A stretch of 64,000 bases of DNA. It comes from Heptranchias perlo (lineage: Eukaryota). Each line of letters starts with the position of its first letter. Within the stretch, counting starts at the first letter, position 1. The stretch covers positions 38,874,001-38,938,000 of the forward strand of contig NC_090332.1 in assembly GCF_035084215.1 (NCBI RefSeq), written 5' to 3'. A program made the translations under genes and the position numbers. The notes under the pieces are model-generated. The model was not told the origin of the DNA. It saw only the letters and a list, made by a program, of their open reading frames with translations, and searched no databases. Shown here in pieces: positions 7,057 to 64,000 of the stretch.

Positions 7057-7193
7057 TTCATTTCGTTCACCTGAGGAAGGAGGAAGCCTCCGAAAGCTTG
7101 TGAATTTAAAATAAAATTGCTGGACTATAACTTGGTGTTGTAAAATTGTTTACAATTGTCAACCCCAGTCCATCACCGGCATCTCCGCATCAT
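7057..7193 (+). mobile_element. Solo Penelope-like pseudo-LTR fragment
   Basis: Near-identical (reverse complement) to the terminal about 135 bp of the GIY-YIG-encoding element at 35530-36334 and to 51819-51943. Confidence 0.85.
7066..7104 (+). ncRNA. Minimal type I hammerhead ribozyme (PLE-associated)
   Basis: TTCAC-CTGAGGA-A-GGAGG/AAG/CCTCC-GAAA-GC-TT-GTGAA: stem I TTCAC:GTGAA, core CUGANGA and GAAA, 5-bp stem II, palindromic AAGCTT stem III. Confidence 0.8.
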
Positions 7194-10294: not shown

Positions 10295-11531
10295 TTACGA
10301 GAAACGTTCAAATATGAGTGACTCCCTGGCCTCACGAGCAGCCAGGTGAGCCGTTGCTCTGCCCGTGGGTTCATTCTCCTCCTCATCCTGCTCCTGCTCC
10401 TCCTCCTCCTCCTCAATGTGGATGGCAGATGTGGATGGTCGAAGAGGGGATGGGGCCTCCTCAATAGGTACCCCTCTCTGTTGCGCTATGTTGTGCAAGA
10501 TACAACACACTACTATAATGAGACCCAATCTCGCTGGTGCATATTGAAGCGCTCCCCCAAAACGATCGAGATGCCGAAATCGCATCTTCAGCAGTCCTAT
10601 CGCATATTCAATTATAGACCGTGGCGATGTGGCTGTCGTTGTATCGACACTGTTGCTCACTGATGGGCTTCCTCAGAGTTGTCATGAGCCACGTGTGCAG
10701 GTGGTATCCCTTGTCCCCGAGGAGCCAGCCCTTAAGGGTGCTCGCTGCGTGGAAGTGGGGCGGGATGTTGGATTCCCTCGGAATGAACGAATCGTGGCAG
10801 CTGCCAGGGAATCTGGCGCATACGTGAAGGAATCTTTTGCAGTGGCCACAAACGAGCTGAGTGTTGATGGAGTGATACCCGTTTCTGTTGATGAACAGAC
10901 TTGGCTTGTGTGGAGGTGCTCGGATTGCTTTATAGGTGCAATCGATTGCACCCTGCACCCTGTGGGAAGCGAACCACAGAGTGGAAGAGTGGAATCCCAT
11001 TGCACTCTCCGTCTGGCTGAGGTTGTCCATGGGGAAGTTGACATATTGCAAGGCCCTGAGAAATAAGTCATCAGTGACCTGCCTTATGCACTTGTGTGCA
11101 GACGACTGAGAGACCCCGGTGATGTCACTGGTGGCACCCTGGAATGATCCTGGAGATGAAGAAGTTGAGAGCAGTGGTGGCTTTAACTGTGACAGGTAAT
11201 AAGATGCCGCCAGACCCAGCAGGGAGCAGCTCGCATGAAGGAGGCTGCAGATGTCTGCGACCACCTGGTGACTCACTCTTAGCCTCCGTATGCACTGATC
11301 CTCAGAGAGGTCCAGGAAGCTGAGCCTCGGTGTGTAGACCCTCTGACGAGGGTAGTGCCTCCTGTGACGTCGCTCCCTCTGTTGTTGCCCTCTGTGATCT
11401 TGTGCAGGTCCCTGTGGTGCAGCACTGTGTTGTGGAGCTCCAAGTGGCGGAAGTGCACGCCCTGCCTGGCGAGGTTGGTGATGTTCCTTGTCCTCGGATG
11501 TAGTGGTGAATGCAGCCATGGCGCCCCCCAT
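10295..11531 (-). pseudogene. Harbinger DDE transposase, frameshifted
   Basis: ORFs 10608-11531 and 10295-10660 give RVQGAIDCT, NRNGYHSINTQLVC, ARFPGSCHDSFI, WLLGDKGY, IEYAIGLLKMRFRHLD, CCILHNIA and a poly-Glu tail. Confidence 0.92.
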
Positions 11532-12984
11532 CCTGATGGTGTGAGTTTGAAGTGGTTTGAAAAGTTGGTCAATATGTGTAAACAGAACAATTCTGAGTGG
11601 AAACCAAGAATTCTCAGTCTAAACACAAAGGTCTCCCAGCCAAAAGTTTGTCCGAGAGAACTGAGTGCCCTGCTGCAATAACTCGCCTTTTATCCCCATC
11701 TGTCAAACAGGGATTTAAATGTCCAAGTGGCTGCTGGCTGCAACACGACTTGTTCCCCATGGCGTGTTTCACACAGCACGGGAAACACGCTGAGGCAGCG
11801 TTGAAATCGCTTGCCTTCAATCTTAATTAGATTCATGTACATTTCAAATACTTCAAGTACTTGAATTCCTTGTTTAAATATCGTCCCACCGGCTTTAATT
11901 GCTGGCCGAACTTTCGGGTTCGGGAACGGCGCTCCTACCCAGATGACTCTGAGTCATGCGCGTTCTTAGGCGTGTTGGAGCTGGGATTTCTACCTGTTTT
12001 TGGAAATCACGATATTCTTCGCCCGACCGCCCCCCCCACCAACGCTCCCGCAGTTCTGGTTTAAAATCGAGCCCCACAACTGAGGACCTCATTGTAATGT
12101 GCATAGAGGTGACCACACGCTCCATGGTTCACCGCATTGATTCGATGCTCTGTGCGATGACCTCTCACAAGTTTGAGATAGACTCCTCCATACTCTCTGA
12201 CTTTGTGTACTGGCACCGTGGCAGATAGTCCAATGCACTGAGCAGTTGGTGGTGTTCTTTTATAGGCTGGGCCCTGGAAGTCATCATATGTGCCCTCTAC
12301 ATCAGGGCTAGAACGTGTGCTCGCCCTCTGGCGAACTGATCCTATCCCCCGACCTTTGCTGCTGCACACTTGTACTCTGTGAATCTCTCAGTGCAGACCC
12401 CTGGAACTGACTCTCTAAAGTACGTGGGGTGGCAATTTTTAAGCTGTGCTTATAAGGGTAAGCCGAGTAGGGTTTGTGCCTCTCTTCTACATCATTGGGT
12501 GCTACAGATGCCCCGCCCACTTTGTGCCCATTGTGGGCACAGATTGAAAATGTCCCCCACTGCTCTCTGTACCCCTATTGCTTTTAGTACTGACAAATCC
12601 AACAAATAATGCTTTCTGTGAGCTCAGATGACTTAAAATTAATGCACAATTGAGGAGCCAATTAGAATGGACCAGCAATAATGCTGCTGAGCCACTTGGT
12701 AAACTGCTAACCATGTCCTTAAGGAGTTCAGACCTGCGAAAGTTGCCTAACTCTCCTGTACGGTGCGTGTGCCTCTAGTGCTTTTCGTTCTGATTGGGTC
12801 ACATTTGTCTTGATGACCCTACATTAGCTCATGCCTGTAGTGCAGCCATTCTGCTTGTGACTTCTTAAAATATAGAAGGCTGTGTTGATACAATCATTTT
12901 CGGAAGTGCTTCTTGTTGCCCTTTTGTTATCAACAATATACTAACTCATGGAACAGATCAGGAATTTTCCAAAACTATGGGAAT

Positions 12985-13353
12985 GAGGGTGGGTGAACAG
13001 CCAGTAGTCGTGGTCCATATTGGTACCAACGACATAGGTAAAAAAAGGGATGAGGTCCTGCAAGGTGAATTTAAGGAGTTAGGAGATAAATTAAAAAGCA
13101 GGACTTCAAAGGTAGTGATCTCAGGATTACTACCAGTGCCACGTGCTAGTGAGTATAGAAACAGGAGAATAGACAGGATGAATGCGTGGCTGCAGAGGTG
13201 GTGTAGGAGGGAGGGATTTAGATTCCTGGGACATTGGGACCAGTTCTGGGGAAGGTGGGACCTGTACAAGCGGGACGGGTTACACCCGAGCACGAGTGGA
13301 ACCAATGTCCTCGCGGGGTGTTTGCTAGTGCTGTTGGGGAAGGTTTAAACTAG
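12985..13353 (+). pseudogene. CR1 ORF1 C-terminal SGNH/GDSL esterase domain (partial)
   Basis: VVVHIGTNDI (SGNH block III) and YKRDGLHP (DxxH block V). The frame ending ...AVGEGLN* requires one more G in the run at 13315-13318. Confidence 0.85.
13344..13350 (+). promoter_or_regulatory. Candidate -1 ribosomal frameshift slippery heptamer T_TTA_AAC at the CR1 ORF1/ORF2 junction
   Basis: GGT TTA AAC TAG. The -1 frame TTT AAA CTA GAG TGG is open for 85 codons into the ORF2 endonuclease with no ATG. Confidence 0.55.
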
Positions 13354-13598
13354 AGTGGCAGGGGGATGGGAATCTCAGCAGGGAGTCAGAAGGGAATAAA
13401 TTCGAGAGCAGCAAGAGAGGGGAAGACCCAGGGGAAATTTACAACACAAATAGTACAAACAGTTGTTCAAGAACAAGTGAAAGGGAAAAGCGTAGAGCAG
13501 CAGAAAGAAAGTGTACTTTAGGCACGACAGATAAAATAAAAACTAGAAGGCGTAAGGCGATTAACCCAGCATCAAAGCTGAAGGTCAGGCTCGGGTGT

Positions 13599-16473
13599 GT
13601 GGCCCAACTAAGAGTTCTATATACAAATGCACGGAGTATAAGGAATAAATTAAATGAATTACAGGTTCAAATTCAAATTGGAGGGTATGACATGATAGCT
13701 ATTACTGAGACTTGGCTGCAGGATGGTCAGGATTGGGAACTAATTATATTGGGTTATAAGGTCTACAGGAGAGATAGGGAAAATGGAAAAGGGGGAGGAG
13801 TAGCCTTAATGATTAGAGATGAAATCACTTCAATGATAAAGGGGGATATAACGAGAGGTAAGCAGCCAACAGAGACCTTATGGGTTGAATTGAGAAATAG
13901 GAAAGGATCCAAGACTATAGTGGGAGTTGTATATAGGAGCCCTGGCAGCAGCTCTGAAGTGCTAGATTGTATAAATGCAGAGATTAGACAAGCGTGTAAG
14001 AAAGACAAAGTGCTCTTAAAGGGGGACTTTAACCTTCACATAGATTGGGAAAAGCAGACTAGCAACTGTCAGAAAGGTAGTGAATTTCTTGAGTGTGTCC
14101 AGGATAGTTTTCTGCAGCAGTATGTCCTAGAGGCAACAAGGGGGCAAGCCATACTAGATTTAGTAATGAGTAATGAACCAGATTTAGTTAACGGCTTAAC
14201 TGTGCGTGAACATCTATCCAATAGTGATCATAACATGATCGAGTTCAATGTGGTGTTTGAAAGGGAAAAAATTGAATCAGCTGCTAAGATTCTAGACTTG
14301 GGCAAGGCCGACTTCAATGGGATGAGACAGAGACTGTCCACAGTAAACTGGGCAAATCAGTTAATGGGTAAAACGACTGATGATCAGTGGGAAATGTTTA
14401 AAGAAACATTTAACGTGATACAGAATCAGTTTATACCCCTGAGGGGCAAGAAGTCTACTTGCCAAAAAAAACAGCCATGGACAACTAAAGAGGTAAGGGA
14501 CAGTATAAGACGTAAGGAAAGGGCATACAAAAAGGCAAAAAATGGCACAGATCCTGGTGAATGGGAAAGATACAAGGATCAACAAAGGGTCACAAAACAG
14601 ATAGTAAGGGCGACAAAAAGAGAGTATGAAAAGAAACTTGCAAGGGATATCAAAACCAATACGAAGAACTTTTATAGTTATATTAGGAAAAAGAGGGTGG
14701 TCAGGAGCAGTGTTGGCCCCTTAAAAACTGAAAGTGGGGATATTGTCATTGACAATGGGGAAATGGCGGACATGTTGAACAATTACTTTGCGTCAGTATT
14801 TACAGTCGAAAAAGAGGATAGCATGCCAGAAATCCCAAGAAAACTTATATTGAATCAGGGACAGGGACTTGATAAAATTAACATAAGTAAAGCAACAGTA
14901 ATGAAGAAAATAATAGCACTAAAGAGTGACAAATCCCCAGGACCAGATGGTTTCCATCCCAGGGTTTTAAAGGAAGTAGGTGAGCACATTGCTGATGCCC
15001 TAACTATAATCTTTCAAAGTTCTCTAGATTCAGGAACTGTCCCTCTAGATTGGAAAATTGAACATGTCACTCCGCTTTCCAAGAAAGGAGCGAGAGGGAA
15101 ACCGAGGAATTATAGACCAGTTAGCCTAACATCTGTTGTGGGGAAAATGCTGGAGTCTATAATTAAGGATAGGGTGACTGAACACCTCGAGAATTTTCAG
15201 TTAATCAGAGAGAGCCAGCATGGATTTATGAAAGGTAGGTCGTGCCTGACAAACCTGATTGAATTTTTTGAAGAGGTGACTAAAGTAGTGGACAGGGGAA
15301 TGTCAATGGATGTTATTTATATGGACTTCCAGAAGGCATTTGATAAGGTCCCACATTAGAGACTGTTAGCTAAGATAGAAGCCCATGGAATCGAGGGAAA
15401 GGTACGGACTTGGTTAGGAAGTTGGCTGAGCGAAAGGCGACAGAGTAGGGATAATGGGTAGGTACTCACATTGGCAGGATGTGACTAGTGGAGTCCCGCA
15501 GGGATCTGTCTTGGGGCCTCAATTATTCACAATATTTATTAATAACTTAGATTAAGGCATAGAAAGTCTCATATCTAAGTTTGCCGATGACACAAAGATT
15601 GGTGGCATTGTAAGCAGTGTAGATGATAACATAAAATTACAAAGCGATATTGATAGATTAGGTGAATGGGCAAAACTGTGGCAAATGGAATTCAATGTAG
15701 ACAAATGTGAGGTCATCCACTTTGGATCAAAAATGGATAGAACAGGATACTTTCTAAATGGTAAAAAGTTAAAAACAGTGGATGTCCAAAGGGACTTAGG
15801 GGTTCAGGTACATAGATCATTGAAGTGTCATGAACAGGTGCAGAAAATAATCAAGAAGGCAAATGGAATGTTGGCCTTTATATCTAGAGGACGAGAGTAC
15901 AAGGGGGCAGAAGTTATGCTGCAGCTATACAAAACCCTGGTTAGATCGCACCTGGAGTACTGTGAGCAGTTCTGGGCACCGCACCTTCGGAAGGACATAT
16001 TGGCCTTGGAGGGAGTGCAGTGTAGGTTTACTAGAATGATACCCGGACTTCAAGGGTTAAGTTACGAGGAGAGATTACACAAATTGGGGTTGTATTCTCT
16101 AGAGTTTCGAAGGTTAAGGGGTGATCTGATCGAAGTTTATAAGATATTAAGGGGAACAGATAGGGTGGATAGAGAGAAACTATTTCCGCTGGTTAGGGAT
16201 TCTAGGAGTAGGGGGCACAGTCTAAAAATTAGAGCCAGACCTTTCAGCAGCGAGATTAGAAAACATTTCTACACACAAAGGGTGGTAGAAGTTTGGAACT
16301 CTCTTCCGCAAACGGCAATTGAAACTAGCTCAATTGCTAAATTTAAATCTGAGATAGATAGCTTTTTGGCAACCAAAGGTATTAAGGGATATGGGCCAAT
16401 AGGCAGGTATATGGAGTTAGATCACAGATCAGCCATGATCTTATCAAATGACAGAGCAGGCACGAGGGGCTGA
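13599..16473 (+). pseudogene. CR1 ORF2 (apurinic endonuclease + reverse transcriptase), disrupted
   Basis: YTNARS, IAITETW, GDFN and SDHN (APE); [35 protein letters not shown] and FADDTK (RT). Premature stop at 15357-15359 and a frameshift near 15445. Confidence 0.93.
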
Positions 16474-16604
16474 ATGGCCTATTCCTGTTCCTATGTTCCT
16501 ATATTGTCTCAACAGGAGGTATGTGTCTAGACTGAGAACATGTTACCCAGTCATATTTAGGAAATTCAACAATGTGCTGAAAGAAAAATAACTGCAAATG
16601 TGCA

Positions 16605-24589: not shown

Positions 24590-27445
24590 ATGGCAGTGCC
24601 TGCGAGACAGCGTGCATCTAGGTTCTCGGTCAATGCACTAGAGGCCTTGGTGCAAGGGATGGACTCATGGAGGGCATCCTTTATCTGCAGAGGGACAAGA
24701 GGCCCTTCAGACATGTGCTGAAGAGGCAGTGGGAGGAAGTCGTGCACAAAGTAAATGCCAGGAGCATCGCACCACGCACATGGATGCGGTGCAGGAAGAT
24801 GTTCAGTGATTTGACCTGAGTGGTGAGTTCAACTGTCAAGTGGCATATCCTACCAACTGCACCACGAGCCTCATCGACTGCTCCACGCACGACACCCCCC
24901 ATCACCTACCTACCAACAAACCTTTTCCATCAGTATGCAACTCTTCAAATCAGATGCTGCATCTCACCCTCACATAGTAGCAATCTTGCAAGCCGCACAC
25001 CCACAACTCACAGATCACGCACACTGGCGGCTATTCAACCATAGCAGCCACATCACCCAAACATCCTGCAGGACACTCATTGACACATGTCCCTCTTTCA
25101 TAAGAACATAAGAACATAAGAAATAGGAGCAGGAGTAGGCCAATCGGCCCCTCGAGCCTGCTCCGCCATTCAATAAGATCATGGCTGATCTGATCCTAAC
25201 CTCAAATCTAAAGAACACAAGAAGTAGGAGCAGGACCCGGCCACTCAGCCCCTGAGCCCGCTCCGCCACCCACAGGGCCTTGACCGATCCGAACTCAGCT
25301 TCATGTCCAATTTCCTGCCCGCTCCCCGTAACCCCTAATTCCCTTTACTTCTAGGAGACTGTCTATTTCTGTTTTAAATTTATTTAATGATGTAGCTTCC
25401 ACAGCTTCCTGGGGCAGCAAATTCCACAGACCTACTACCCTCTGAGTGAAGAAGTTTCTCCTCATCTCAGTTTTGAAAGAGCTGCCCCTTATTCTAAGAT
25501 TATGCCCCCTAGTTCTAGTTTCACCCATCCTTGGGAACATCCTTACCGCATCCACCCGATCAAGCCCCTTCACAATCTTATATGTTTCAATAAGATCGCC
25601 TCTCATTCTTCTGAACTCCAATGAGTAGAGTCCCAATCTACTTAACCTCTCCTCATATGTCCACCCCCTCATCCCCGGGATTAGCCGAGTGAACCTTCTT
25701 TGTACTGCCTTGAGAGCAAGTATGCCTTTTCTTAAGTATGGACACCAAAACTGTATGCAGTATTCCAGGTGCTGTCTCACCAATACCTTATATAACTGCA
25801 GCAATACCTCCCTGATTTTATATTCTATCCCCCTAGCAATAAAAGCCAACATTCCGTTGGCCTTCTTGATCACCTGCTGCACCTACATACTAACTTTTTG
25901 ATTTTCTTGCACGAGGACCCCCAGATCCCTTTGTACTGCAGTACTTTCCAGTTTCTCGCCATTAAGATAATAACTTGCTCTCTGATTTTTCCTGCCAAAG
26001 TGCATAACCTCACATTTTCCAATATTGTATTGCATCTGCCAAATCGCCGCCCACTCACCCAGCCTGTCTATATCCCCTTGTAGGTTTTTTATGTCCTCCT
26101 CCCTCTCTACTTTCCCTCCCATCTTTGTATCATCTGCAGGAGAAGGTGGCGCACAACAGCAGGCAGCACGAAAGACCTAGGGGAGGGCAGATGCGCCTAC
26201 ACGTCCTTGCCCCCATGGAGGAGACAGTGCTGTCGATCACTGGGCGGGCCGTCGCTGTGGCCGCTGGTGGTGCTGGAGGTATCGGAGAGTCTCTGCATAA
26301 CTATTCCTCCTTCTCGCTTCCCACTTCTCCCTCATCCCACAATCTTTTCTGACTCACGTGCTGCAGATGGTATCACCACACACGTCTTACTTTCTCCTCT
26401 CCTCTCACCACAACTCAACCCGTGTCCCTTTGTCATTTCAGATACCCAAGAACTGAAACTGCCACTGTCAGAGGAGGCAGCGGCATACAACAGTGATGAT
26501 GAAGACACCCCGTCACTCGATCTTACACTCATAGCCACCAATTCAGAGGCTGACACTACATAGCTTAGAGGCTAGGATAGAGGAGGGATCTGCACGTGAT
26601 GAGACACCAGGCACAAGTGTGCAGGAGCTGGGGCGGGGGAACGGATACTACAGGTGCCAGCTAGCCGCAGGGCAAGGTCTCACACTGGTTCTGCTGCAAA
26701 GGAGTCAGATGATGACTTCGATGGGTCAGGCTACAGAAGAAGGCTGATAGGTGTACACAACCAAATGCTTGGTGCACTGGAAAGCCTGCCAGAACGCCTG
26801 CGCACAATGTCAAGGGGCATGGAGGAGTCCAGTTCCAACTTGGCACAGGATTTTGCGCAGAGCTTGGAGCCCATCCTTTCCCACATGGAACGGGTGGTCA
26901 CCTCCATCAGCACACCTGTGGAACCCACCAGAATGCAACGTCTGATGACCAATATTGCAACTTCCATTGCAGCACAAACATCTGCCATCCAAAATCTGAC
27001 TGCTGCGTTACAGGCTCAGACTGCTACTTTTGTGGCTCTGGGCTCCACTGTGGAACGGGGCTTCCAGGGCGTCACAGCAGATCACCAGGATTGCTGAGTC
27101 GCCGCCCGTGGAGAGTGGCAGTGGCGCCATAGAAGATGAACCTATTATCCTCTCTCAGGATGACAGCATTCCTGCTCCCACCCCTACCAGTGCCCTTGCT
27201 GTTACCTGTCAGCCAGCTGGCCCACACTTCTGTAGCCCAGGTGAAGATAGTGTAGTCTGAAACCGGGCCATCTCGGCACAAAGTTGCTCGAGGTCTTCTG
27301 CCAAGGCCATCTGCACTCTCCTCAATTGAAGGTCAGCAATGTTCCACCACCAATGCTCCAGCTACTAGGGATGCACCTCGTAGCAGCACTAGGAAAGGAA
27401 AAGACACACAAACGACAGGCACTAAGGGAATGCACAAGGGTAAAC
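24590..27445 (+). pseudogene. Harbinger C Myb/SANT-like accessory gene, 3 exons, CR1 inserted in intron 1
   Basis: Exon 1 reads MAVPARQRASRFSVNALEALVQG...RTWMRCRKMFSDLT, then GTGAGT. Exon 2 from 26140 reads EKVAHNSRQHERPRGG..LAPMEETVL. Exon 3 from about 26443 includes ORF 26654-27097. Confidence 0.75.
25099..26138 (-). mobile_element. CR1 LINE, 5'-truncated at the RT FADD motif
   Basis: ORFs 25883-26122 and 25301-25882 encode the RT C-terminus. (TTCTTATG)3 tail at 25099-25122. Confidence 0.93.
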
Positions 27446-27499
27446 AGTCTCATGTTGTTTCAATTGTTTCAATCGTCAATTTGGATTTGAATTTGCATT

Positions 27500-28908
27500 T
27501 CATAGAATCATAGAAATTTACGGCACTGAAGGAGGCCATTCAGCCCATCGTGTCTTTGCCGGCCAAAGAAGAGCTATCCAGCCTAATCCCACTTTCCAGC
27601 ACTTGATCCATAGCCTTGTAGATTATGGCACTTCAAATGCATATCCAAGTACTTTTTAATGCGATAAACGTTTCTGCCTCTATCAGCCTTTCAGGCAGTG
27701 AATTCCAGACCCCTACCACTCTCTGGGTGAAAAAAATTCTCCTCAGCTTCCCTCTAATCCTTCGACCAATTACTTTAAATCTATGCCCCCTGGTAACTGA
27801 CCCCTCTGCTAAGGGAAATAGGTCCTCCCTGTCCACTCTATCTAGGCCCCTCATAATTTTATACACCTCAATTAAATCTCCCCTCAGCCTCCTCTGTTCC
27901 AAAGAAAACAACCCCAGCCTATCCAATCTTTCCTGATAGCTAAAGTTCTCCAGTCCTGGCAACATCCTCATAAATCTCCTCTGTACCCTCTCTAGTGCAA
28001 TCACATCTTTCTAGTAATGCAGTGTCCAGGACTGTACGCAACACTCTAGCTTTGGCCTAACTAGTGTTTTATATAGTTCTAGCATAACCTCCTTGCTCTT
28101 ATATTCTATGCCTCGGATAATAAAGGAAAGTATCCCATACGCCTTTTTAACCGCCTTATCTACCTGTCCTGCTACCTTCAGGGATCTGTGAACATGCACT
28201 CCAAGGTCCCTCACTTCCTCTACACCCTCTCAGTATCCTCCCATTTATTGTGTACTCCCTTGCCTTGTTTGCCCTCCCCAAATGCATTACCTCACACTTC
28301 TCCGGATTGAATTCCATTTGCCACTTTCCTGCCCACCTGATCAGTCCATTGATGTCTTCCTGCAGTCTACAGCTTTTCTCCTCACTATCAACCACACAGC
28401 CAATTTTTGTTAATCTGCAAACTTCTTAATCATGCCCCCTACATTTAAGTCTAAGTCATTAATATATACCACAAAAAGCAAGGAACCTAGTACTGAGCCC
28501 TGTGGAACCCCACTGGAAACAGCCTTCCCATCACAAAAACACCCGTCGACCATTACCCTTTGCTTCCTGCCACTGAGCCAATTTTGGATCCAACTTGCCA
28601 CTTTTCCTTGGATCCTATGGGCTTTTACTTTCCTGACCAGTCTGCCATGTGGGACCGTGTCAAAAGCCTTGCTAAAATCTATGCAGACTGCATCAAACGT
28701 GTTACCCTCATTGATCCTCCTTGTCACCTCCTCAAAAAATTCAATCAAGTTAATCAGACATGACCTTCCCTTAACAAATCCATGCTGACTGTCCTTGATT
28801 AATCCGTGCCTTTCTAAATGACAATTAATACTGTCCCTCAGAATCGTTTCCAATAATTTTTCCATCACCGAGGTTAAGCTGAGTGGCCTGTAATTACTCG
28901 GTCTATCC
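27500..28908 (-). mobile_element. CR1 LINE, 5'-truncated (family 2)
   Basis: ORFs 28410-29081, 28156-28395, 28011-28214 and 27633-28004 carry RT motifs ([13 protein letters not shown]). TTCTATGA-type tail at about 27500-27514. Confidence 0.93.
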
Positions 28909-29049
28909 CATTTGATGGTGGTTTTTATTTCTGCGATGAGCTGAGGGAGGAAGCAATGTGTAATCATAAGGAGGACGATTTGATGATCAGATGGGAGAGG
29001 AAAGGTAAGGAGTGTGGGACTGTTAGTGAATGGGGAGGTGTTGTTGACG

Positions 29050-29562
29050 TTATTGGTATCTCTCATTAATAATCTGATCACACAGATTACTGGCAGACTG
29101 GGCCTGTCTACCTTGTTGCCTCCCTGCCATTTCCTGCTGCACTTCCTCCTTCTCCTCCTCCACTTCCTCCTCCGCCTCTTCCTCCTCTTCCTCTGCCTCT
29201 GGCTCAGGTTCTCGCCGGATAGACGGTGGCAAGGGCTGTTACCTCATGATGGCGAGGTTGTGCAGCATGCAGCATACAACAACAAAATCGTGATACCCAC
29301 TCAGCTGAGTACTGCAGGGCTCCTCCAGAGTGGTCGAGGCAGCGGAAGCATTGCTTGAGGATGCCTATGGTGTGCTCGATGATGTTCCCTGTGGCAGCAT
29401 GGCCCTCATTGTACGCCTGCTGTGCGTTCCGAACCGGAGTCATGAGCCACTTCATGAGGGGATTGCCCTGGTCACCCAATAGCCATGCTGGTTGAAATAT
29501 AGGTGGCATGTTGGACTGCCGCAGAATGAAGGAGTCATGACTGCTGGAAGGATAGCGGCATT
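29050..29562 (-). pseudogene. Harbinger C transposase, 3' part
   Basis: RYPSSSHDSFILRQS, WLLGDQGNPL, IEHTIGILKQCFRCLD, CCMLH and a poly-Glu tail. Confidence 0.88.
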
Positions 29563-29770
29563 GATCTATTGGCAAGAGCAGAGAGGCCAGAGAGGGGATA
29601 AAGAGCAGCGGAGAAAAGTATACAAAACGAAAACAAAGAAAGAAAAACAGCTAAAGTGACGTGAGCACAAAGGACGGAACTGATTGGTGAGTAGCTGATT
29701 AGTGAGTCTTTCTTTTTGACTCTTTAGTTTATTTCTGTTAAATTGAGTTAGTAGTCTAATAAATAGAGGC

Positions 29771-30697
29771 ATGGCAGGGCACCTCAGTCTCATCGAATGC
29801 ATATCCTGTGCCATGTGGAAAGTCCAGGAAGCTTCCCGTGTCCTGGACGGCGACAGGTGCAGGAAGTGTTGTCAGCTGGAGGAGCTCGAGCTCTGGGTCT
29901 TGGAGCTTGAGCAGCAGCTGGCGTCACAGCGATGCATCCATGAGGCTGAGAGCTACGTGAATAGCACGTTTCAGGAGGTGGTCCCCCGCAGCTTAAGAAA
30001 GTGCAGGCAGAGAGGGACTGGGTGACTGTCAGACAGACAAGGAGGACCAGGCAGGTAGTTCAGGAGTCCATTGAGGTCATCTCACTCTCTAACCAGCATT
30101 CAGTTCTGAATACTGGTGAGGGAAAGGGTTCCTCCAGGGAGTGCAGCTAGAGCCAAGTCCACAGCACCATGGATGGCTCAGCTGTACAGAGGGGGAGGAG
30201 GAAGGTCAGGAGAGCAATAGTGACAGCGGATTCAATAGTTAGGGGAACAGACAGGTGTTACTGCATCCGCAGACATGATTCCAGGATGGTATGTTGCCTC
30301 CCTGGTGCCGGGGTCAAGGATGTCACTGAGCGTCTGCAGAATATTCTGAAGCGGGAGGGTGAACAGCCAGAGGTCATGGTCCATATTGATCCCAATGACA
30401 TAAGTAGAAAGAGGGATGAGGTCTTGCAGGCAGAGTTTAAGGAGCTAGGAAAGAAATTAATGAGTAGGACCTCAAAGGTAGTAATCTCCGGATTACTCCC
30501 GGTGCCACGTGCTAGCGAGTATGGAAATAGGAGGATAGAGCAAATGAATGCATGGCTGGAGAGATGGTGCAGGGGGGAGGGCTTTAGATTCCTGGGGCGT
30601 TGGGACCGGTTCTGGGGGAAGGTGGGACCTGTACCGGCTGGATGGGTTGCACCTCACCAATATCCTTGCTAGTGCTATTGGGGAGAGTTTAAACTAG
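29771..30697 (+). pseudogene. CR1 ORF1 (CxxC...CxxC zinc finger, leucine zipper, SGNH esterase), frameshifted
   Basis: MAGHLSLIECISCAMW...CRKCCQLEELELWVLELEQQL, then ADSIVRG...CLPGA.V.DV...VMVHIDPND, ending ASAIGESLN* at TTTAAACTAG. Confidence 0.85.
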
Positions 30698-30907
30698 CTT
30701 GGCAGGGGGATGGGAACATGAGCGTAGATTCAGAAGGGAGAGAAGCAGAGATGAAAATGGAAGATAGAAAATTAGAAAGTGAGTTTGGAAGGCAGCTCAA
30801 CATTCTTGGTTACAGGGATTTCAGATGAGATAGAGAGGGGGGTAGAAAAAGAAGGGGAGTGGCAATATTGGTTAAAGAAACAATTACAACGGTGAGGAGG
30901 GTTAATA

Positions 30908-32672
30908 TTTTTTTTTATTCGTTCATGGGATGTGGGCGCCGCTGGCAAGGCCAGCATTTATTGCCCATCCCTAATTGCCCTTGAGAAGGTGGTGGTGAGC
31001 CACCTTCTTGAACCGCTGCAGTCCGTGTGTTGAAGGCTCTCCCACAGTGCTGATAGGTAGGGAGTTCCAGGATTTTGACCCAGTGACGATGAAGGAACAG
31101 CGATATATTTTCAAGTCGGGATGGTGTGTGACTTGGAGGGGAACGTGCAGGTGGTGTTGTTTCCATGTGCCTGCTGCCCTTGTCCTTCTAGGTGGTAGAG
31201 GTCGCGGGTTTGGGAGGTGCTGTCGAAGATGCCTTGGCGAGTTGCTGCAGTGCATCCTGTGGATGGTACACACTGCAGCCACAGTGCGCTGGTGGTGGAG
31301 AGAGTGAATGTTTAGGGTGGTGGATGGGGTGCCAATCAAGCGGGCTGTTTTGTCCTGGTTGGTGTCGAGCTTCTTGAGTGTTGTTGGAGCTGCACTCATT
31401 CGGCAAGTGGAGAGTATTCCATCACACTCCTGACTTGTGCCTTGTAGATGGTGGAAAGACTTTGGGGAATCAGGAGGTGAGTCACTCGCCGCAGAATACC
31501 CAGCCTCTGACCTGCTCTTGTAGCCACTGGATTTATGTGGCTGGTCAAGTTAAGTTTCTGGTCAACGGTGACCCCCCAGGATGTTGCTGGTGTGGGATTC
31601 GGCAATGGTAATGCCGTTGAATATCAAGGGAAGATGGTTAGATTCTCTCTTGTTGGAGATGGTCATTGCCTGGCACTTGTCTGGCGCGAATGTTACTTGC
31701 CACTTATCAGCCCAAGCCTGGATGTTGTCCAGGTCTTGCTGTATGCGGGCAAGGACTGCTTCATTATCTGAAGGGTTGTGAATGGAACTGAACATTGTGC
31801 AATCTTCAATGAATAGCTCCACTTCTGACCTTATGATGGAGGGAAGGTCATTGATGAAGCAGCTGAAGATGGTTGGGCTAGGACACTCCCCTGAGGAACT
31901 CCTGCAGCAATTTCCTGGGGCTGAGATGATTGGCCTCCAACAACCACTACCATCATCTTTTGTGCTAGGTATGACTCCAGCCACTGGAGAGTTTTCTCCC
32001 TGATTCCCATTGACTTCAATTTTACTGGGGCTCCTTGGTCCCAAACTCGGTCAAATGCTGCTTTGATGTCAAGGGCAGTCGCTCTCACCTCACCTCCGGA
32101 ATTCAGCTCTTTTGTCCATGTTTGGACCAAGGCTGTAATGAGGTCTGGAGCCAAGTGGTCCTGGCGGAACCCAAACTGAGCATCGGTGAGCAGGTTATTG
32201 GTGAGTAAGTGCCGCTTGATAGCACTGTCGACTAAACCTTCCATCACTTTGCTGATGATTGAGAGTAGACTGATGGGGTGGTAATTGGCCGGATTGGATT
32301 TGTCCTGCTTTTTGTGGACAGGACATTCCTGGGCAATTTTCCACATTGTCGGGTAGATGCCAGTGTTGTAGCTGTACTGCAACAATTTGGCTAGAGGTGC
32401 ACCTCGTTCTGGAGCGCAAGTCTTCAGCACTACAGCCGGGATGTTGTCGGGGCCCATAGCCTTTGTTGTATCCAGTGCACTCAGCCATTTCTTGATATCA
32501 CGTGGAGTGAATCGAATTGGCTGAAGACTGGATTCTGTGATGGTGGGGATATCGGGAGGAGGCCGAGATGGATCATCCACTCGGCACTTCTGGCTGAAGA
32601 TGGTTGCAAACGCTTCAGCCTTTTCTTTTGCACGTGCTGGACTCTGCTATCATTGAGGATGGGGATGTTTAC
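30908..32672 (-). mobile_element. CR1/L2-group LINE of a distinct family (ORF2 ends ...FKKVAHHHLLKGN*), 5'-truncated
   Basis: ORFs 31831-32580, 31562-32044, 31396-31605 and 30971-31399 give KAMGPDNIP, NY.PISLLS, LDIKAAFDRVW and GVPQGSVL, with an A-rich 3' tail. It interrupts the host CR1 endonuclease region. Confidence 0.9.
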
Positions 32673-33253
32673 ATGTTGTATGTTCGAAGGCTCAACAAAT
32701 GAGGACATATGGGTTGAGTTAAAGAACGAAAAAGGGGCAATCACACTGCTGCGAGTGTACTGTCGACCCCCTAACATTCAGAGGGAGATAGAAGAACAAA
32801 TATGTAGGCAAATTTCTAAGAAGTGCTGAAGCAATAGGGCAGTATTAGTGGATTTCAACTACCCTAATATTAACTGGGATACAAGCGGTGTAAAATATAT
32901 AGAGGGCGCAGAATTCTTAAACTGCATTCTGGAGAACTTTTTTAGCCAGTACATGGCAAGCCCAATAAGATTGGGTGGGGGGGGGTACGTTCTGGACTTA
33001 GTTTTAGGGAATGAAGCTGGGCAGATGGAAGGAGTATCAGTGGGAGAGCATTTTGGTGATAGTGATCATAATTCAGTTAGATTTAGCATAGTTATGGAAA
33101 GGGACAAAGAAGGAACAGGAGGTAAAGTTTTCAATTGGGGAAAGGCCAATTTTACTAAGCTGAGAAGCGATTTAGCAAAAGTGGACTGGAAACAGCTACT
33201 TGAAGGTAAATTAGTGTCAGAGCATGGCATGGAAGGCATTCAAAGGAGAGCTT

Positions 33254-34081
33254 GGGCTCAATTTTAGGAGGCGAATGCAGGTGCGTTGGGGGCGGGGGGG
33301 CTCCGAAAATCGCTGAAATCCTGTTCGGGTTCGGAAGCCGGCTCCAACCTACCAACTTCTGAGTTTCCCAGGGTCCCACCAGTGTGCGCATGGACGACCC
33401 GAAGAAAGAAGTCCCGCCGGCAATTAACGTCGGTGGGATGACAGTTAAAGAGTCAAATGGACCTCATTGAGGGTATTTAAGGCACTTTACCTGTGACAGA
33501 TGAAGGGATTAGAAAGATTTTCACTTACCTGGGCGGCTTGCCCATCGCTTCTGATTTCACCAGACGTGAAGGGCCGGATCAGAGAACAAGAAACTAAATA
33601 AATTAAATAAAAAACCATAGACGGAAGTGAAAACACAAAATGAACCTACCTTTGCACCTGGCTCCGATGTCCAATATCTCCTTCTCCGATGTTCCCTCTT
33701 CACCACCCCCTCCCAATGTCCTCCCGATCTTCCCGTCACCCTCCGATCTTCCCCTCTTCCCCACCCCAGTCTTCCAGTCCAGCGCCAGATCTTCCACTCT
33801 CCACCGCCCCCCCCCCCCACCCCGGTCTACCAGTTCAGCACCGGATGATGTCTCACTCTCTCTCTTTCTTGTCCCCTCCCACCTCGCATTGCAGCTCCTG
33901 ATGGCAGCCAGCCTGTTAATCAGGCTGGCTGCTGGGTGCGAAAGCTGGAGTGGACGTTAATCATCAGCGATCAACGTGCGATCGGGTCGGAAACGGTAAG
34001 TTTTGTTCATGCGGGTTTGCCACGTGCAACTTCACCCCCCGCCCCCCGCTGCCAACCCGCCGCCATTGTAAAATCACCCCC
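33254..34081. mobile_element. Non-autonomous Harbinger (MITE) related to element B
   Basis: TIR-like ends GGGCTCAATTTTA and TAAAATCACCCCC with CTT/ATT flanks. Subterminal sequence resembles both ends of Harbinger B. It interrupts CR1 ORF2. Confidence 0.75.
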
Positions 34082-35615
34082 ATTGTGAGGGTTCAGAACA
34101 AACATGTCCCCACAAAGAAAAAGGGTGGGACTGCCAAATCAAGAGCCCCCTGGATGACAAGGAGTATGCAGGGTAGGATACAACAAAAAAGGAAGCTTAC
34201 GTCAGATACTGAGAGCTCAATACTGTAGAAAGCCTAGAGGAGTTTAGAAAGTGCAGGGATGAAATTAAAAAGGAAATTAGGAAAGCAAAGAGGGGGCATG
34301 AAAAGATATTGGCAAGTAAATTAAAGGAAAACCCAAAGATGTTTTATAAATACATAAAGAGCAAGAGAATAATTAAGGAACGAGTAGGGCCTAATAGAGA
34401 CCAAAGAGGTAACCTATGTGTGGAGGCGGAAGACATGGGTATTGTTCTTAATGGATACTTTGCGTCTGTGTTCACAAAAGAGGGGCACAATGCAGAGATT
34501 GTACTTAAGGAGGAGGAGTGTGAAATATTGGATGGGATAAACATAGTGAGAGAGGAAGTATTAAGAGGTTTAGAATCTTTGAAAGTAGGTAAATTGCCAG
34601 GCCCGGATGAAATATAACCCAGGCTATTAAGAGAAGCAAGGGAGGAAATAGCAGAGACTCTCATTTATCATTTTCCAATCCTTCCTGGTGACAGGCATGG
34701 TGCCAAAGGATTGGAGGACTGCTAACGTTGTACTGTTGTTTAAAAAGTGAGAGAGATAGACCGAGTAATTATAGACCAGTCAGTCTAACCTCGGTGGTGG
34801 GCAAATTATTTGAATCAATTCTGAGGGACAGCATAAATCATCATTTAGAAAGGCACGGGTTAATCAAGGACAGTCAGCGTGGATGGTCGCGTCTGACTAA
34901 CTTGATTGAATTTTTTGAGGAGGTAACAAGGAAGGTTGATGAAGGTAACACGTTTGATTTTAGCAAGGCTTTTGACAAGGTCCCACATGGCAAACTGGTC
35001 AAAAAAGTAAAAGCCCATGGGATCCAAGGGAATGTGGCAAGTTGGATCCAAAATTGGCTCAGTGGCAAGAAACAAAGGGTAATGGTTGACAGGTGTTTTT
35101 GCGACTGGAAGGCTGTTTCCAGTGGGGTCCCGCAAGGCTCAGTATTAGGTTCCTTGCTTTTTGTGGCATATATTAATGATTTGGACTTGAATGTAGGAGG
35201 TTGATCATGAAGTTTGCAGATGATACAAAAATTGTCCATGTGGTTGATAATGAAGAGGAAAGCTGTAGACTGCAGGAAGATATCAATGGACTGATCAGGT
35301 GGGCAGAAAAGTGGCAAATGGAATTCAATCCAGAGAAGTGTGAGGTAATGGATTTGAGGAGGGTAAACAAGGCAAATGATTACATAGTAAATGGGAGGAT
35401 ACTGAGAGGTGTAGAGGAACAGAGGACCTTGGAGTCCATGTCCACAGATCCCTGAAGTAGCAGGACAGTAGATAAGCTGATTAAAAAGGCATATGGGATA
35501 CTTTCCTTTATTAACCAGGGCATGGAATGATGTGGAGATGCTGGTGATGGACTGGGGTTGACAATTGTAAACAATTTTACAACACCAAGTTATAGTCCAG
35601 CAATTTTATTTTAAA

Positions 35616-35654
35616 TTCACAAGCTTTCGGAGGCTTCCTCCTTCCTCAGGTGAA
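35616..35654 (-). ncRNA. Minimal type I hammerhead ribozyme (PLE-associated)
   Basis: Reverse complement is identical to 7066-7104. Confidence 0.8.
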
Positions 35655-35880
35655 CGAAATGAAATCCTTGAAATGAAATCGCATTTATAATTCACAGAAC
35701 AATGCTTGGTGATTACAGACAGTTTTTTCAACTGCCCGTTGCCAAGGCAATCAGTGTGCAGACAGACAGGTGTTACCTGCAAGGTCTCAGAATATACAAA
35801 TCACCAAAAAAAAAAATAATAAACAAAAAAAACAGATAGAGAGGTAGAAACATAGAAAAGACAGCAACTGACCCGTTATA

Positions 35881-51905: not shown

Positions 51906-51944
51906 TTCACAAGCTTTCGGAGGCTTCCTCCTTCGTCAGGTGAT
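51906..51944 (-). ncRNA. Minimal type I hammerhead ribozyme (PLE-associated)
   Basis: Reverse complement reads ATCAC-CTGACGA-A-GGAGGAAGCCTCC-GAAAGCTT-GTGAA. Confidence 0.75.
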
Positions 51945-51965
51945 TGTGTAATCATTTTCACATCG

Positions 51966-52004
51966 TTCACCTGACGAAGGAGGAAGCCTCCGAAAGCTTG
52001 TGAA
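51966..52004 (+). ncRNA. Minimal type I hammerhead ribozyme (PLE-associated)
   Basis: TTCAC-CTGACGA-A-GGAGGAAGCCTCC-GAAAGCTT-GTGAA. It differs from the 7066 copy only at the variable core position N7. Confidence 0.8.
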
Positions 52005-59100: not shown

Positions 59101-60031
59101 TTGCACTGATGGAATAAGCAAAGTGGAGTGCTTTTAGCAGTCATTAATGTATACTTGTTAATGTTAACATTCACTTATGTGGTGACATAACGTCTGTGGC
59201 AGTCTATAGAATTCTGTCCCTTGTCAATGCACTCTGGTGCTTTCTGCAGTCTGAAGTATTTCCCTTTAATCAGGATTGATTTTCACTTTGATTCAATTTG
59301 CAGTTTCTCAGCAAAGCTCGCAGCAGGAAATTTGAGAATGTGGTAATGTAGGATTTGCCCATTATAAGGAAAACGTTACAGCATTTGAGGTCACGGCAAA
59401 CTGTGATCAGCAAAAGGATAAGCCACTAGCAATTGCTCTTTTCACAATAAGGACAGCATGACAATTAATGAACGATAATTGAATGTAAAACCCAGCTCAC
59501 CACATCACAGTTTGATTGCCCTTTGCATTTATTCCTCTTTAAGGATATCGGTTTGACCCACAGAAAGTTCTATTTTTGTTTTATCAGGCCTGTGCCAAAG
59601 CATTTTAAATGATCAGTTATGACTCTTTAATGGTTCCACTTAAGAAACTAAGCTAGAACAATGATATTTAATTAAGAAAAATGCACACAAGGTGTAGTGA
59701 TTGCCCCCAAGGGCAGAGTGGTGGGCCAGCATGCTGCGGCACCAATGCATAGTACGACAGAGTGCTGAGATGCACTTTTGGTTTCGCCATTTCCCTGTCT
59801 GAGTTCTCGTCTCATGCTCTGATTTTCTGTTGATCCCCGGGCACCTGCACTGCTATGGGTAGAAGTCCCGGTTAGCAAAGTTCACACAGAAACATTTAGC
59901 GCATCTGTACTACATTCCTGTGAGTGGTATTTTTAGGCAGGTGTTAGGAACATAGGAACAGGAAGGCCATTCAGCCCCTCGTGCCTGCTCTGCCATTTGA
60001 TAAGATCATGGCTGATCTATATTGGCCCATA

Positions 60032-62825
60032 TCACTTAATACCTTTGGTTGCCAAAAAGCTATCTATCTCAGATTTAAATTTAGCAATTGAGCTAGTATC
60101 AATTGCCATTTGCGGAAGAGAGTTCCAAACTTCTACAACCCTTTGTGTGTAGAAATGTTTTCTAATCTCACTCCTGAAAGGTCTGGCTCGAATTTTTAGA
60201 CTGTGCCCCCTACTCCTAGAATCCCCAACCAGCGGAAATAGTTTCTCTCTATTCACCCTATCCGTTCCCCTTAATATCTTATAAACTTCGATCAGATCAC
60301 CCCTTAACCTTCGAAACTCCAGAGAATATAACCCCAATTTGTGTAATCTCTCCTCGTAACTTAACCCTTGAAGTCCGGGTATCATTCTAGTAAACCTACG
60401 CTGCACTCCCTCCAAGGCCAATATGTCCTTCCGAAGGTGCGGTGCCCAGAACTGCTCACAGTACTCCAGGTGTGGTCTAACCAGGGTTTTGTATAGCTGC
60501 AGCATAAACTCCTGCCCCCTTGTACTCTAGTCCTCTAGATATAAAGGCCAGCATTCCATTTGCCTTCTTGATTATTTTCTGCACCTGTTCATGACACTTC
60601 AATGATCTATGTACCTGAACCCCTAAGTCCCTTTGCACATCCACTGTTTTTAACTTTTTACCATTTAGAAAGTACCCTGTTCTATCCTTTTTTGATCCAA
60701 AGTGGATGACCTCACATTTGTCTACATTGAATTCCATTTGCCACAGTTTTGCCCATTCACCTAATCTATCAATATCGCTTCGTAATTTTATCTTTTCATC
60801 TACACTGCTTACAATGCCACCAATCTTTGTGTCATTGGCAAACTTAGATATGAGACTTTCTATGCCTTCATCTAAGTCGTTAATAAATATTGTGAATAAT
60901 TGAGGCCCCAAGACAGATCCCTGCGGGACTCCACGAGTCACATCCTGCCAATGTGAGTACCTTCCCGTTATCCCTACTCTCTGTCGCCTTTCGCTCAGCC
61001 AACTTCCTAACCAAGTCCGTACTTTTCCCTCGATTCCATGGGCTTCTATCTTAGCTAACAGTCTCTTATGTGGGACCTTATCAAATGCCTTCTGGAAGTC
61101 CATATAAATAACATCCATTGACATTCCCCTGTCCACTACTTTGGTCACCTCTTCAAAAAATTCAATCAGGTTTGTCAGGCACGAACTACCTTTCACAAAT
61201 CCATGCTGGCTCTCTCTGATTAACTGAAAATTCTCGAGGTGTTCAGTCACCCTATCCTTAATTATAGACTCCAGCATTTTCCCCACAATAGATGTTAGGC
61301 TAACTGGTCTATAATTCGCTGGTTTCCCTCTCTCTCCTTTCTTAAAAAGCGGAGTGATATGTGCAATTTTCCAATCTAGAGGGACAGTTTCTGAATCTAG
61401 AGAACTTTGAAAGATTATAGTTAGGGCATCTGCAATGTGCTCACCTACTTCCTTTAAAACCCTGGGATTGAAACCATCTGGTCCTGGGGATTTGTCACTC
61501 TTTAGTGCTATTATTTTCTTCATTACTGTTGCTTTACTTATGTTAATTTTATCGAGTCCCTGTCCCCGATTCAATATTAGTTTTCTTGGGATTTCCGGCA
61601 TGCTATCCTCTTTTTCGACTGTAAATACTGACGCAAAGTAATTGTTCAACATGTCCGCCATTTCCCCATTGTCAATGACAATATCCCCACTTTCAGTTTT
61701 TAAGGGGCCAACACTGCTCCTGACCACCCTCATTTTCCTAATATAACTATAAAAGTTCTTCGTATTGGTTTTGATATCCCTTGTGAGTTTCTTTTCATAC
61801 TCTCTTTTTGTAGCCCTTACTATCTGTTTTGTGACCCTTTGTTGATCTTTGTATCTTTTCCATTCATCAGGATCTGTGCCATTTTTTGCCTTTTTGTATG
61901 CCCTTTCCTTATGTCTTATACTGTCCCTTACCTCTTTAGTTGTCCATGGCTGTTTTTTTTGGCAAGTAGAGTTCTTGACCCTCAGGGGTATAAACCGATT
62001 CTGTATCACGTTAAATGTTTCTTTAAACATTTCCCACTGATCATCAGTCATTTTACCCATTAACAGATTTGCCCAGTTTACTGTGGACAGTCTCTGTCTC
62101 ATCCCATTGAAGTCGGCCTTGCCCAAGTCTAGAATCTTAGCAGCTGATTCACTTTTTTCCATTTCAAACACCACCTTGAACTCGATCATGTTATGATCAC
62201 TATTGGATAGATGTTCACGCACAGTTAAGCCGTTAACTAAATCTGGTTCATTACTCATTACTAAATCTAGTATGGCTTGCCCCCTTGTTGCCTCTAGGAC
62301 ATACTGCTGCAGAAAACTATCCCGAACGCACTCAAGAAATTCACTACCTTTCTGACAGTTGCTAGTCTGCTTTTCCCAATCTATGTGAAGGTTAAAGTCC
62401 CCCTTTAAGAGCACTATGTCTTTCTTACACGCTTGTCTAATCTCTGCATTTATACAATCTAGCACTTCAGAGCTGCTGCCAGGGCTCCTATATACAACTC
62501 CCACTATAGTCTTAGATCCTTTCCTATTTCTCAATTCAACCGATAAGGTCTCTGTTGGCTGCTTGCCTCTCGTTATATCCCCCTTTATCATTGAAGTGAT
62601 TTCATCTCTAATCATTAAGGCTACTCCTCCCCCTCTTCCATTTTCCCTATCTCTCCTGTAGACCTTATAACCTGGTATGTTTAGTTCCCAATCCTGACCA
62701 TCCTGCAGCCAAGTCTCAGTAATAGCTATCATGTCATACCCTCCAATTTGAATTTGAACCTGTAGTTCATTTAATTTATTCCTTATACTCCATGCATTTG
62801 TATATAGAACTCTTAGTTGGGCCAC
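60032..62825 (-). CDS. CR1 ORF2 (APE endonuclease + RT): 782-aa ORF plus a frameshifted C-terminus; catalytic FADD mutated to FAND
   Basis: ORFs 60477-62825 and 60032-60505 carry all APE and RT motifs, with one frameshift near 60505. Confidence 0.92.
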
Positions 62826-63070
62826 ACACCCTAACCTGACCTTCAGCTTTGATGCTAGGTTAATCGCCTTACGCCTTCTAGTTTTTATTTTATCTGTCGT
62901 GCCTGAAGTACACTTTCTTTCCGCTGCTCTATGCTTTTCCCTTTTACTTGTTCTTGAACAACTGTTTGTACCATTTGTATTGTAAATTTCCCCTGGGTCT
63001 TCCCCTCTCTTGCTGCTCTCAACTTTATTCCCTTCTGACTCCCCGCTCAGGTTCCCATCCCCCTGCCACT

Positions 63071-63571
63071 CTAGTTTAAACCTTCCCCAACAGCACTAGC
63101 AAACACCCCGCGAGGACATTGGTCCAGGTCCTGCTCGGGTGTAACCCGTCCCGCTTGTACAGGTCCCACCTTCCCCAGAACCGGTCCTAATGTCCTAGGA
63201 ATCTAAATCCCTCCCTCCTACACCATCCCTGCAGCCACGCATTCATCCTGTCTATTCTCCTGTTCCTATACTCACTAGCACGTGGCACTGGTAGTAATCC
63301 TGAGATCACTACCTTTGAAGTCCTGCTTTTTAATTTATCTCCTAACTCCTTAAATTCACCTTGCAGGACCTCATCCCTTTTTTTTACCTATGTCGTTGGT
63401 ACCAATATGGACCACGACTACTGGCTGTTCACCCTCCCCCTCCAGAATGCCCTGCAGCCGCTCCGTGACATCCTTGACCCTAGCCCAAGGGAGGCAACAT
63501 ACCATCCTGGAGTCACGTTTGCGGCCGCAGAAATGCCTATCTGTTCCCTTTACAATTGAATCCCCTATCAC
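63071..63571 (-). pseudogene. CR1 ORF1 SGNH esterase domain (partial, frameshifted in an A-run)
   Basis: IGDSIVKG (GDS block I), CLPWARVKDV, VHIGTNDI and RDGLHP. Ends at TTTAAACTAG (heptamer at 63074-63080). Confidence 0.85.
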
Positions 63572-64000
63572 TATAGCCCTGCCACTCTTCTTCCTCCCCT
63601 CCTGTGCAGCAGAGCCACCAATAGTGTTAACCCGTTTAAAACGAATGAGTTAACACTAGTGTAAAAATAACGCGTGAACTTCACCGATCGGAGTTTTTGC
63701 CCTCTCATCTCACAAGTCGCCCAAGGGTGGCGTAGTCGGAGATCCAGAGACCCTCAGGTCATGTAGGGCCCAATGAAACAAGAAAAGGAAGGGAAATGAA
63801 GGAAAAATGAGAAGAGATAGCTGAAAAATAAGGAAAGTAAATGTAATTCAAGCTCGTTAATAAACATTGAGAAAAAAATGCTTTAAGACCAATGTTTAAT
63901 ATCTCTTTATTTTTGCCACAAGGCAATTCTTTTTTATTCTTTCATAGGACATTTTACATAAGACATACAATAAATACAGCAGTAAAAGTATTAATTTAAG

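Follow-up and report, generated by a model that had tools for sequence, protein, structure and literature searches.

CR1 copies in the window and their ORF1/ORF2 junction

The stretch analyzed here, called the window, comprises 64,000 nucleotides (nt) of Heptranchias perlo DNA (contig NC_090332.1, positions 38,874,001 to 38,938,000, forward strand). It contains three copies (A, B, and C) of CR1 long interspersed nuclear elements (LINEs) with the heptamer T_TTA_AAC (TTTAAAC) at the junction between the first and second open reading frames (ORF1 and ORF2). As judged from comparisons of this junction, programmed -1 frameshifting at U_UUA_AAC probably yields a fusion of ORF1, linker, endonuclease, and reverse transcriptase (RT) in the esterase-type CR1 LINEs.

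Copy A (12987..16501, + strand) is decayed and 5'-truncated within ORF1, and it is 96% identical to copy B (59945..63626, - strand) across 3519 nt. GDSL esterase, APE endonuclease, and RT were detected in copy A with Pfam. The C-terminal portion of its ORF1 SGNH/GDSL esterase lies at 12992..13353 (+; PF13472, E 1.7e-14), over the curated cut-off, and the PF13472 match of copy C is under it; the endonuclease (PF03372/PF14529) and the RT (PF00078) are present in both A and B. ORF2 of copy A (13608..16473, +) is broken by a stop at 15357-15359 and a 2-nt gap near 15441, and the ORF2 frame of copy B is open over 872 codons. The 3' end of copy A (16480..16501, +) consists of short CCTATGTT-like repeats without poly(A); copy B ends in CCTATGTT-like repeats as well, and the 5' ends of the two differ. 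Copy C (29771..30739, +), from a more distant subfamily (79%), retains most of ORF1, including the N-terminal cysteine cluster and the esterase, and ends ESLN*, followed by the G-rich element also found in A and B. The closest named proteins to the window CR1 are from sharks and rays. The RT tree contained unlabelled relatives only, and the CR1 label rests on the resemblance, by eye, of the window elements to entries named CR1 in the PMC13343379 supplement.

In copy A, the heptamer (13344..13350, +) directly adjoins the ORF1 stop TAG of the family frame (GLN*; 13351-13353, +). It occupies 63080-63074 in copy B, where the junction is as in A, and 30688-30694 in copy C, in which DGLHL...ESLN* is read in a single frame and the heptamer is in phase. 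The G run at 13315..13318 (+) is one base shorter in A and B than in intact relatives, and the esterase frame of both copies, as sequenced, ends GKV* (TAA 13346-13348 in A). Both insertions are decayed and their heptamer is out of phase, so that they preserve the signal in a form that would not be used as it stands. The sequence-only reading, which had started from copy A, located the landmarks correctly, including the TAG that opens the -1 frame (13326-13328, +), the heptamer, the first endonuclease motif LRVLYTNARS from 13608, and four G tracts. Its placing of the heptamer directly before the ORF1 stop was borne out in A, B, and C, and its caveat that A and B have one G too few at 13315-13318 was right.

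The heptamer alone is frequent, with 24 TTTAAAC matches on both strands of the window. Inside ORF2s, an in-phase X_XXY_YYZ was found at only 37 of 7366 codons, and therefore the position and phase of the heptamer, unlike its mere presence, are not due to chance.

Past the heptamer, the -1 frame runs through a linker (13353..13607, + in copy A) into the endonuclease. In both A and B, FKL is followed by 85 codons with neither stop nor ATG, so the uninterrupted frame reaching LRVLYTNARS that had been proposed is indeed there. The open linker exceeds chance expectation: the -1 frame has 0 stops, whereas the remaining two frames contain 3 and 8 (copy A) or 5 and 8 (copy B), and only 36 and 15 of 3000 dinucleotide shuffles (copies A and B, respectively) gave an open linker. 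Purifying selection on the linker, which had been suggested as a further sign, was not demonstrable, as the changes between A and B (5/3/6 over codon positions 1/2/3) are uninformative.

The first in-frame ATG of copy A is at 13692 (YDM), 28 codons into the endonuclease. In a profile built from the window endonuclease and its relatives, the first motif aligned to residues 6-20 of L1 ORF2p, including the active-site residue Asn14; the single endonuclease sequence gave no match in the PDB search in which the profile did match. Because the first ATG follows this motif, the motif would be lost from A or B if translation began at an AUG. The proposed lack of an ATG ahead of the APE domain holds for A and B and does not extend to the whole family, as linker ATGs occur in copy C and in locus L001 (see below) and 3 of the 18 published junctions contain UAAUG, a stop-start.

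ORF1 ends in relatives and published consensuses

Among esterase relatives, LN* ended 12 of the 22 short proteins and 32 of the 38 longer ones, in the latter at the domain end; one further longer relative ended TIN* and five stopped earlier. The relative P0001 (76% identical to the copy A esterase) ends VLGGVFASAVGEGLN. The sequence-only reading had named a family ending of GKV* as evidence that would overturn it, and none of the 38 longer relatives ended in this way. An out-of-phase end (GGV*) was seen in P0011, 1 of 201 pooled esterase matches. By these protein endings, LN* is the ORF1 end of the family, at which the heptamer would be in phase.

In the set of 166 esterase matches, 119 reached the domain end, with 66 LN, 8 GN, 2 KN, and 43 other endings. 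All GN endings were QGN (8/8), fitting G_GGA_AAC, and the KN endings were SKN and AKN, fitting A_AAA_AAC; both kinds of ending belong to distant relatives known as proteins. U_UUA_AAC, G_GGA_AAC, and A_AAA_AAC are among the most shift-prone heptamers for mammalian ribosomes (PMC5009743). As a separate observation, the ends of P0140, P0160, P0182, P0163, and P0187 (SFLQV, TFLQ, SFFQ, QFFH, and EFFR, respectively; proteins only) could encode U_UUU_UUA or U_UUU_UUY, the former as in L001.

The residue preceding the terminal LN in the pooled set had only C/U-ending codons in 29 cases and only A/G-ending codons in 1. Since U_UUA_AAC requires a U-ending codon before Leu, this split fits a constraint exerted by the heptamer; before interior LN pairs in 44 ORF2 proteins, the corresponding counts were 67 and 56. 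The Fisher value of 6.5e-7, obtained on the 166 esterase matches, overstates the case, the sequences being related. Under ORF2 codon usage, T_TTA_AAC would be expected for only about 3% of LN pairs, and 0 of the 5 interior LN pairs of copy B are spelled so. The constraint on the ORF1 end, as read from these endings, looks nucleotide-level and placed on the RNA.

Independent DNA loci were obtained by scanning genome contigs with ORF2 motifs and not with the heptamer, which gave 78 loci (L001-L078); the endonuclease start was matched by 34 frames, 21 of which were examined. These loci are apparently eukaryotic DNA inside microbial assemblies. Animal-type LINEs filed under bacterial names (P0010, P0223, and L001-L078) are most simply explained by contamination. 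An esterase ORF1 was present in three loci belonging to two families, in each of which ORF1 ends on a slippery site that is in phase. In L017 and L007, ORF1 is 34% identical to the window esterase and ends RYLN* on T_TTA_AAC TAG, in phase. The -1 frame of L017 is open with no ATG up to the endonuclease, and that of L007 is broken by one base in the GGCAGGGGG run. In L001, ORF1 is 28% identical to the window esterase and ends RFLV* on an in-phase T_TTT_TTA, and the -1 frame is open into the endonuclease, with a linker ATG 14 codons on. U_UUA_AAC is the site of infectious bronchitis virus and U_UUU_UUA that of human immunodeficiency virus (PMC5009743).

Four further loci (L008, L039, L012, and L051) have a long ORF1 in the -1 relation to ORF2 and no esterase match. 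L012 and L051 contain no in-phase slippery heptamer. L008 has A_AAT_TTA at 2425-2431, in phase and directly before TAG, and L039 has A_AAA_AAC at 1360-1366 within a 214-nt ORF1/ORF2 overlap; downstream structure was predicted in neither. By these two sites, the mechanism may extend beyond esterase CR1s. Other arrangements were seen among the loci. In the related elements L010 (2480-2541) and L013 (271-323), a long ORF lies upstream and is overlapped by ORF2 in the +1 relation; L013 has no ATG ahead of the endonuclease. In L006 and L015, which belong to a related LINE family, ORF1 and ORF2 share one frame and are split by a single TGA followed by CAA (353-355 and 1230-1232, respectively), with no ATG before the first endonuclease motif, making this a candidate case of stop-codon readthrough. 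The ORF1 of L007 (3662-4915) and L017 (4054-4698) carries an SH3 domain between the N-terminal cysteine cluster and the esterase. Scanning the genome contigs by esterase alignment gave 19 pattern matches, none of which was confirmed; tblastn against plasmids gave one weak match, probably a bacterial esterase, and tblastn against phages gave no match.

The supplement of PMC13343379 was searched by the motif itself in cells truncated at 400 nt, and the search therefore gives no denominator. In the part covered, TTTAAAC followed by a stop was found 23 times, and 18 of these were ORF1/ORF2 junctions by eye. As the row codes indicate, the 18 junctions represent 12 vertebrate species, spanning sharks, rays, chimaera, coelacanth, bowfin, a teleost, a frog, crocodilians, and a lizard. 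The stop was TAG in 11, TAA in 6, and TGA in 1, and a run of at least 4 G lay within 14 nt in 14 of the 18. Six other spellings of LN* occurred in 40 places of the same material, with no CR1 ORF1 end among the 23 matches listed. The consensuses in this supplement often drop bases and are uninformative on phase. No CR1 junctions were found in the supplement of PMC8665684 or in the searched files of the PMC4316615 supplement.

Two protein records cross the junction. P0024, a named Hypanus sabinus gene model, contains esterase, GFKLDVQGAG, linker, and endonuclease in a single chain; it shows both frames joining at the junction, though the chain could also stem from mutation of the copy or from faulty annotation. 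P0010 runs on into FKLIWQGDG past the ORF1 end.

Candidate frameshift and its alternatives

In the proposed mechanism, ribosomes would read ORF1 as far as its two final codons, UUA AAC, which form the observed ORF1 end of the family. Most would terminate at the next codon and release ORF1p, and a minority would slip back one base on U_UUA_AAC by tandem -1 slippage. The slipped ribosomes would cross the variable linker, along the open joined frame described above, into the endonuclease and RT and so produce a Gag-Pol-like fusion. The adjacent stop may aid slippage, as may a G-rich element conserved in position about 11 nt downstream; in the L001 family, a predicted stem-loop would take the place of this element. 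The core of the sequence-only reading, an esterase-linker-endonuclease-RT fusion made by -1 frameshifting, is strongly supported by the comparisons; its details on the G-quadruplex, the ATG, and linker selection are not. For the wider proposal that -1 frameshifting was the ancestral route of RT production in esterase-type CR1s, covering sharks, bony fish, amphibians, reptiles, and distant, probably invertebrate, lineages, with a short G-rich element as the stimulator at U_UUA_AAC, the chances appear about even.

The stimulator is the weak part of the case for frameshifting. The G-rich element GGCAGGGGGATGGG (13357..13370, +) is identical in A, B, and C, with the G5 run starting 11 nt after the heptamer, and GGCAGGGGG at equal spacing (G5 at +11) is common to A, B, C, L017, and L007. 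The four G tracts (13361-65, 13368-70, 13381-83, and 13392-94, +), to which a stimulating role had been ascribed, are present in A and B; the third and fourth (13381..13394, +) are not conserved, and the shorter G run at about +11 is shared instead. As the four-G3 pattern is missing from C, L017, and L007 (present in 2 of 5 junctions of the U_UUA_AAC class), a four-tract, three-tier G-quadruplex was rejected as a conserved stimulator. A two-tier G-quadruplex was predicted with ViennaRNA in A, B, and C and not in L017, and only 3 of 137 G4Hunter windows along copy A were equally G-rich. Probably, a protein-bound G tract and a two-tier G-quadruplex are equally possible forms of the element. In L001, the predicted stem begins 6 nt past the heptamer (z-scores of -2.3, -1.7, and -1.3 for 80, 60, and 120 nt, respectively), within the usual stimulator spacing of 5-9 nt (PMC3542737). 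Among other candidates, a downstream stem-loop in the window copies was no better than in shuffles, and pairing over long distances between the G-rich element and the 3' tail or ORF2 was unspecific, the best partner differing in A, B, and L017. The Rfam scan of 13100-13750 gave one sub-threshold match and none at the gathering score.

Several observations count against frameshifting. No stable stem-loop follows the window heptamers (z-scores of -1.5 to +1.1; pseudoknots were not searched), and none follows the heptamer of L017. The G run is absent in 4 of the 18 published junctions, and UAAUG stop-starts are present in 3. At the protein level, 43 of the 119 esterase ends fit none of the three slippery-type endings. 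In the tree of 103 esterase proteins, a single 18-row clade contains every GN and KN end, and therefore there may have been only about three independent slippery-site switches. The upstream gap is common to A and B, which are independent insertions without a shared frameshift in ORF2, and seven other G5 runs are intact in both; therefore, the source element of A and B may itself have been out of phase. A systematic homopolymer error behind the gap is not supported, since those seven runs were kept.

Coupled termination-reinitiation, the known route in SART1 and L1, is the main alternative, though an unlikely one, in which ribosomes would restart near the ORF1 stop at an AUG or a near-cognate codon of the -1 frame and make a separate ORF2p, with the G-rich element as a helper. 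The UAAUG junctions would suit such a restart, as would the predicted start of P0026 at the junction, and SART1 reinitiation requires structure downstream of the stop-start (PMC5972666). UGGGA also occurs in A, B, C, L017, and L007 at a distance of 72-116 nt upstream, though inside Trp codons. However, A, B, C, and L017, as well as 15 of the 18 published junctions, have no AUG at the stop. A re-pairable heptamer is not required for reinitiation, which also leaves unexplained both the U-ending codon before LN and the switching among canonical slippery sites. Some CR1 families could use both frameshifting and termination-reinitiation.

It is less probable still that ORF2p is started independently in the linker, at a near-cognate codon or a family-specific AUG, whether by leaky scanning or internal entry or from an RNA that is spliced or shorter. 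Such starts could be provided by CTG (linker codon 78) and GTG (codon 85), which A and B have in common, and by the linker ATGs of C and L001, and predicted ORF2 proteins begin 24-86 residues ahead of the endonuclease motif; however, the start positions vary between families, and neither the retention of the heptamer nor a frame open all the way back to it would be explained. As the ORF1 stop is variable, a splice acceptor at this site was rejected; junctions with TAA or TGA are incompatible with one.

Equally improbable is that the heptamer is a by-product of a need for C-terminal Leu-Asn, or an RNA packaging or processing motif, with no change of frame: TTTAAAC is common in the window, arises also from an FKL motif inside amniote ORF2, and is out of phase in A and B, but the rarity of T_TTA_AAC under ORF2 codon usage and inside copy B, the lack of other LN* spellings at CR1 ORF1 ends among the matches listed, and the GN, KN, and FLV endings that replace LN yet keep the slippery pattern all speak against it. 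A separate 18-row esterase clade has 0 LN, GN, or KN ends, and therefore the esterase fold does not need them; this clade may be L2-like (the tree is unlabelled).

Neighboring features and related recoding systems

Other repeats surround the CR1 copies. The 5' untranslated region of copy C (29680-29770) contains ATTGGTGAGT and then a pyrimidine tract; similar donor-like motifs were present in 5' untranslated regions of shark CR1 consensuses in the PMC13343379 supplement, two of which also had TTTAAACTA(A/G). Older CR1/L2-like ORF2 fragments are numerous (25113-29120, - strand; 31574-36924; 40235-41122; 51298-52261), and no ORF1 junction was found in those of the window. A repeat of 100-137 nt, probably a young short element, occurs in four copies of 97-98% identity (7057-7193, 35527-35664, 51818-51943, and 51956-52056), two of which sit in older LINE fragments. 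A broken DDE_Tnp_4 transposase lies within a GC-richer stretch at 10298-11618 (- strand). It is presumably Harbinger-like.

The closest counterparts of the window elements are elasmobranch CR1 families (PMC13343379; for example ScyCan_CR1-1a and PriPec_CR1-7), which have an esterase ORF1, APE and RT, and a junction nearly identical by eye. The words 'frameshift', 'overlap', and 'translation' are absent from the main text of that paper, and the junction signal is thus not treated there in these terms. As in CR1, retroviral gag-pol and coronavirus ORF1a/1b have an in-phase X_XXY_YYZ at the end of the first ORF and an open -1 frame into the polymerase. CR1 differs from both in that the host is an element without long terminal repeats (non-LTR), and the U_UUA_AAC class has no stable stem-loop, only the G run at about +11 nt. 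No protease domain that could cut the fusion was found in the window CR1 ORFs with Pfam.

SART1 and mammalian L1 resemble CR1 in having a bicistronic non-LTR RNA, and some CR1 families share UAAUG at the junction. In L1 there is a spacer of 63 nt, and in SART1 an AUG overlaps the stop (PMC5972666), whereas most CR1 junctions seen have neither arrangement and a slippery site instead. Frameshifting in a non-LTR element, as proposed here for CR1, has been described for the Drosophila HeT-A gag (PMC5009743), but it takes place within gag and does not join ORF1 to ORF2; HeT-A has no RT. Protein-stimulated frameshifting by arterivirus nsp1beta with PCBP offers a possible model of how a short, unstructured motif could act from a position downstream of the slip site (PMC5009743). 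The CR1 element is G-rich and without a known binding protein, in contrast to the C-rich arterivirus motif. The latter motif is located at about 10 nt.

No proposal of frameshifting at the CR1 junction was found in open PubMed Central and bioRxiv papers, a search that did not cover the original CR1 descriptions. A chicken CR1 paper of 1997 reportedly names closely spaced ORFs in its title, so an earlier suggestion is possible. CR1 was not mentioned in the part of PMC5009743 searched. No account of CR1 ORF2 translation was found in open papers either, and the LINE models that were found (L1 and SART1) are of reinitiation. The best interpretation of the junction is a recoding mechanism already known from elsewhere, here in a setting for which no description was found: the feature is real and deeply conserved, and the element is known.

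The natural use of G-quadruplexes in frameshifting was anticipated but unknown in 2016 (PMC5009743), and the CR1 junction, the whole signal of which takes up <100 nt, may supply a natural G-rich frameshift stimulator. If frameshifting at the junction is true, the ORF annotation of CR1 and the criterion of an intact copy would change, and the place where ORF2p begins would become clear to designers of CR1 assays. CR1-group elements are the dominant retrotransposons of most vertebrates (PMC13343379), and a major LINE clade would then make a Gag-Pol-like fusion, with a fixed ORF1p:RT ratio and the esterase tied to the enzyme.

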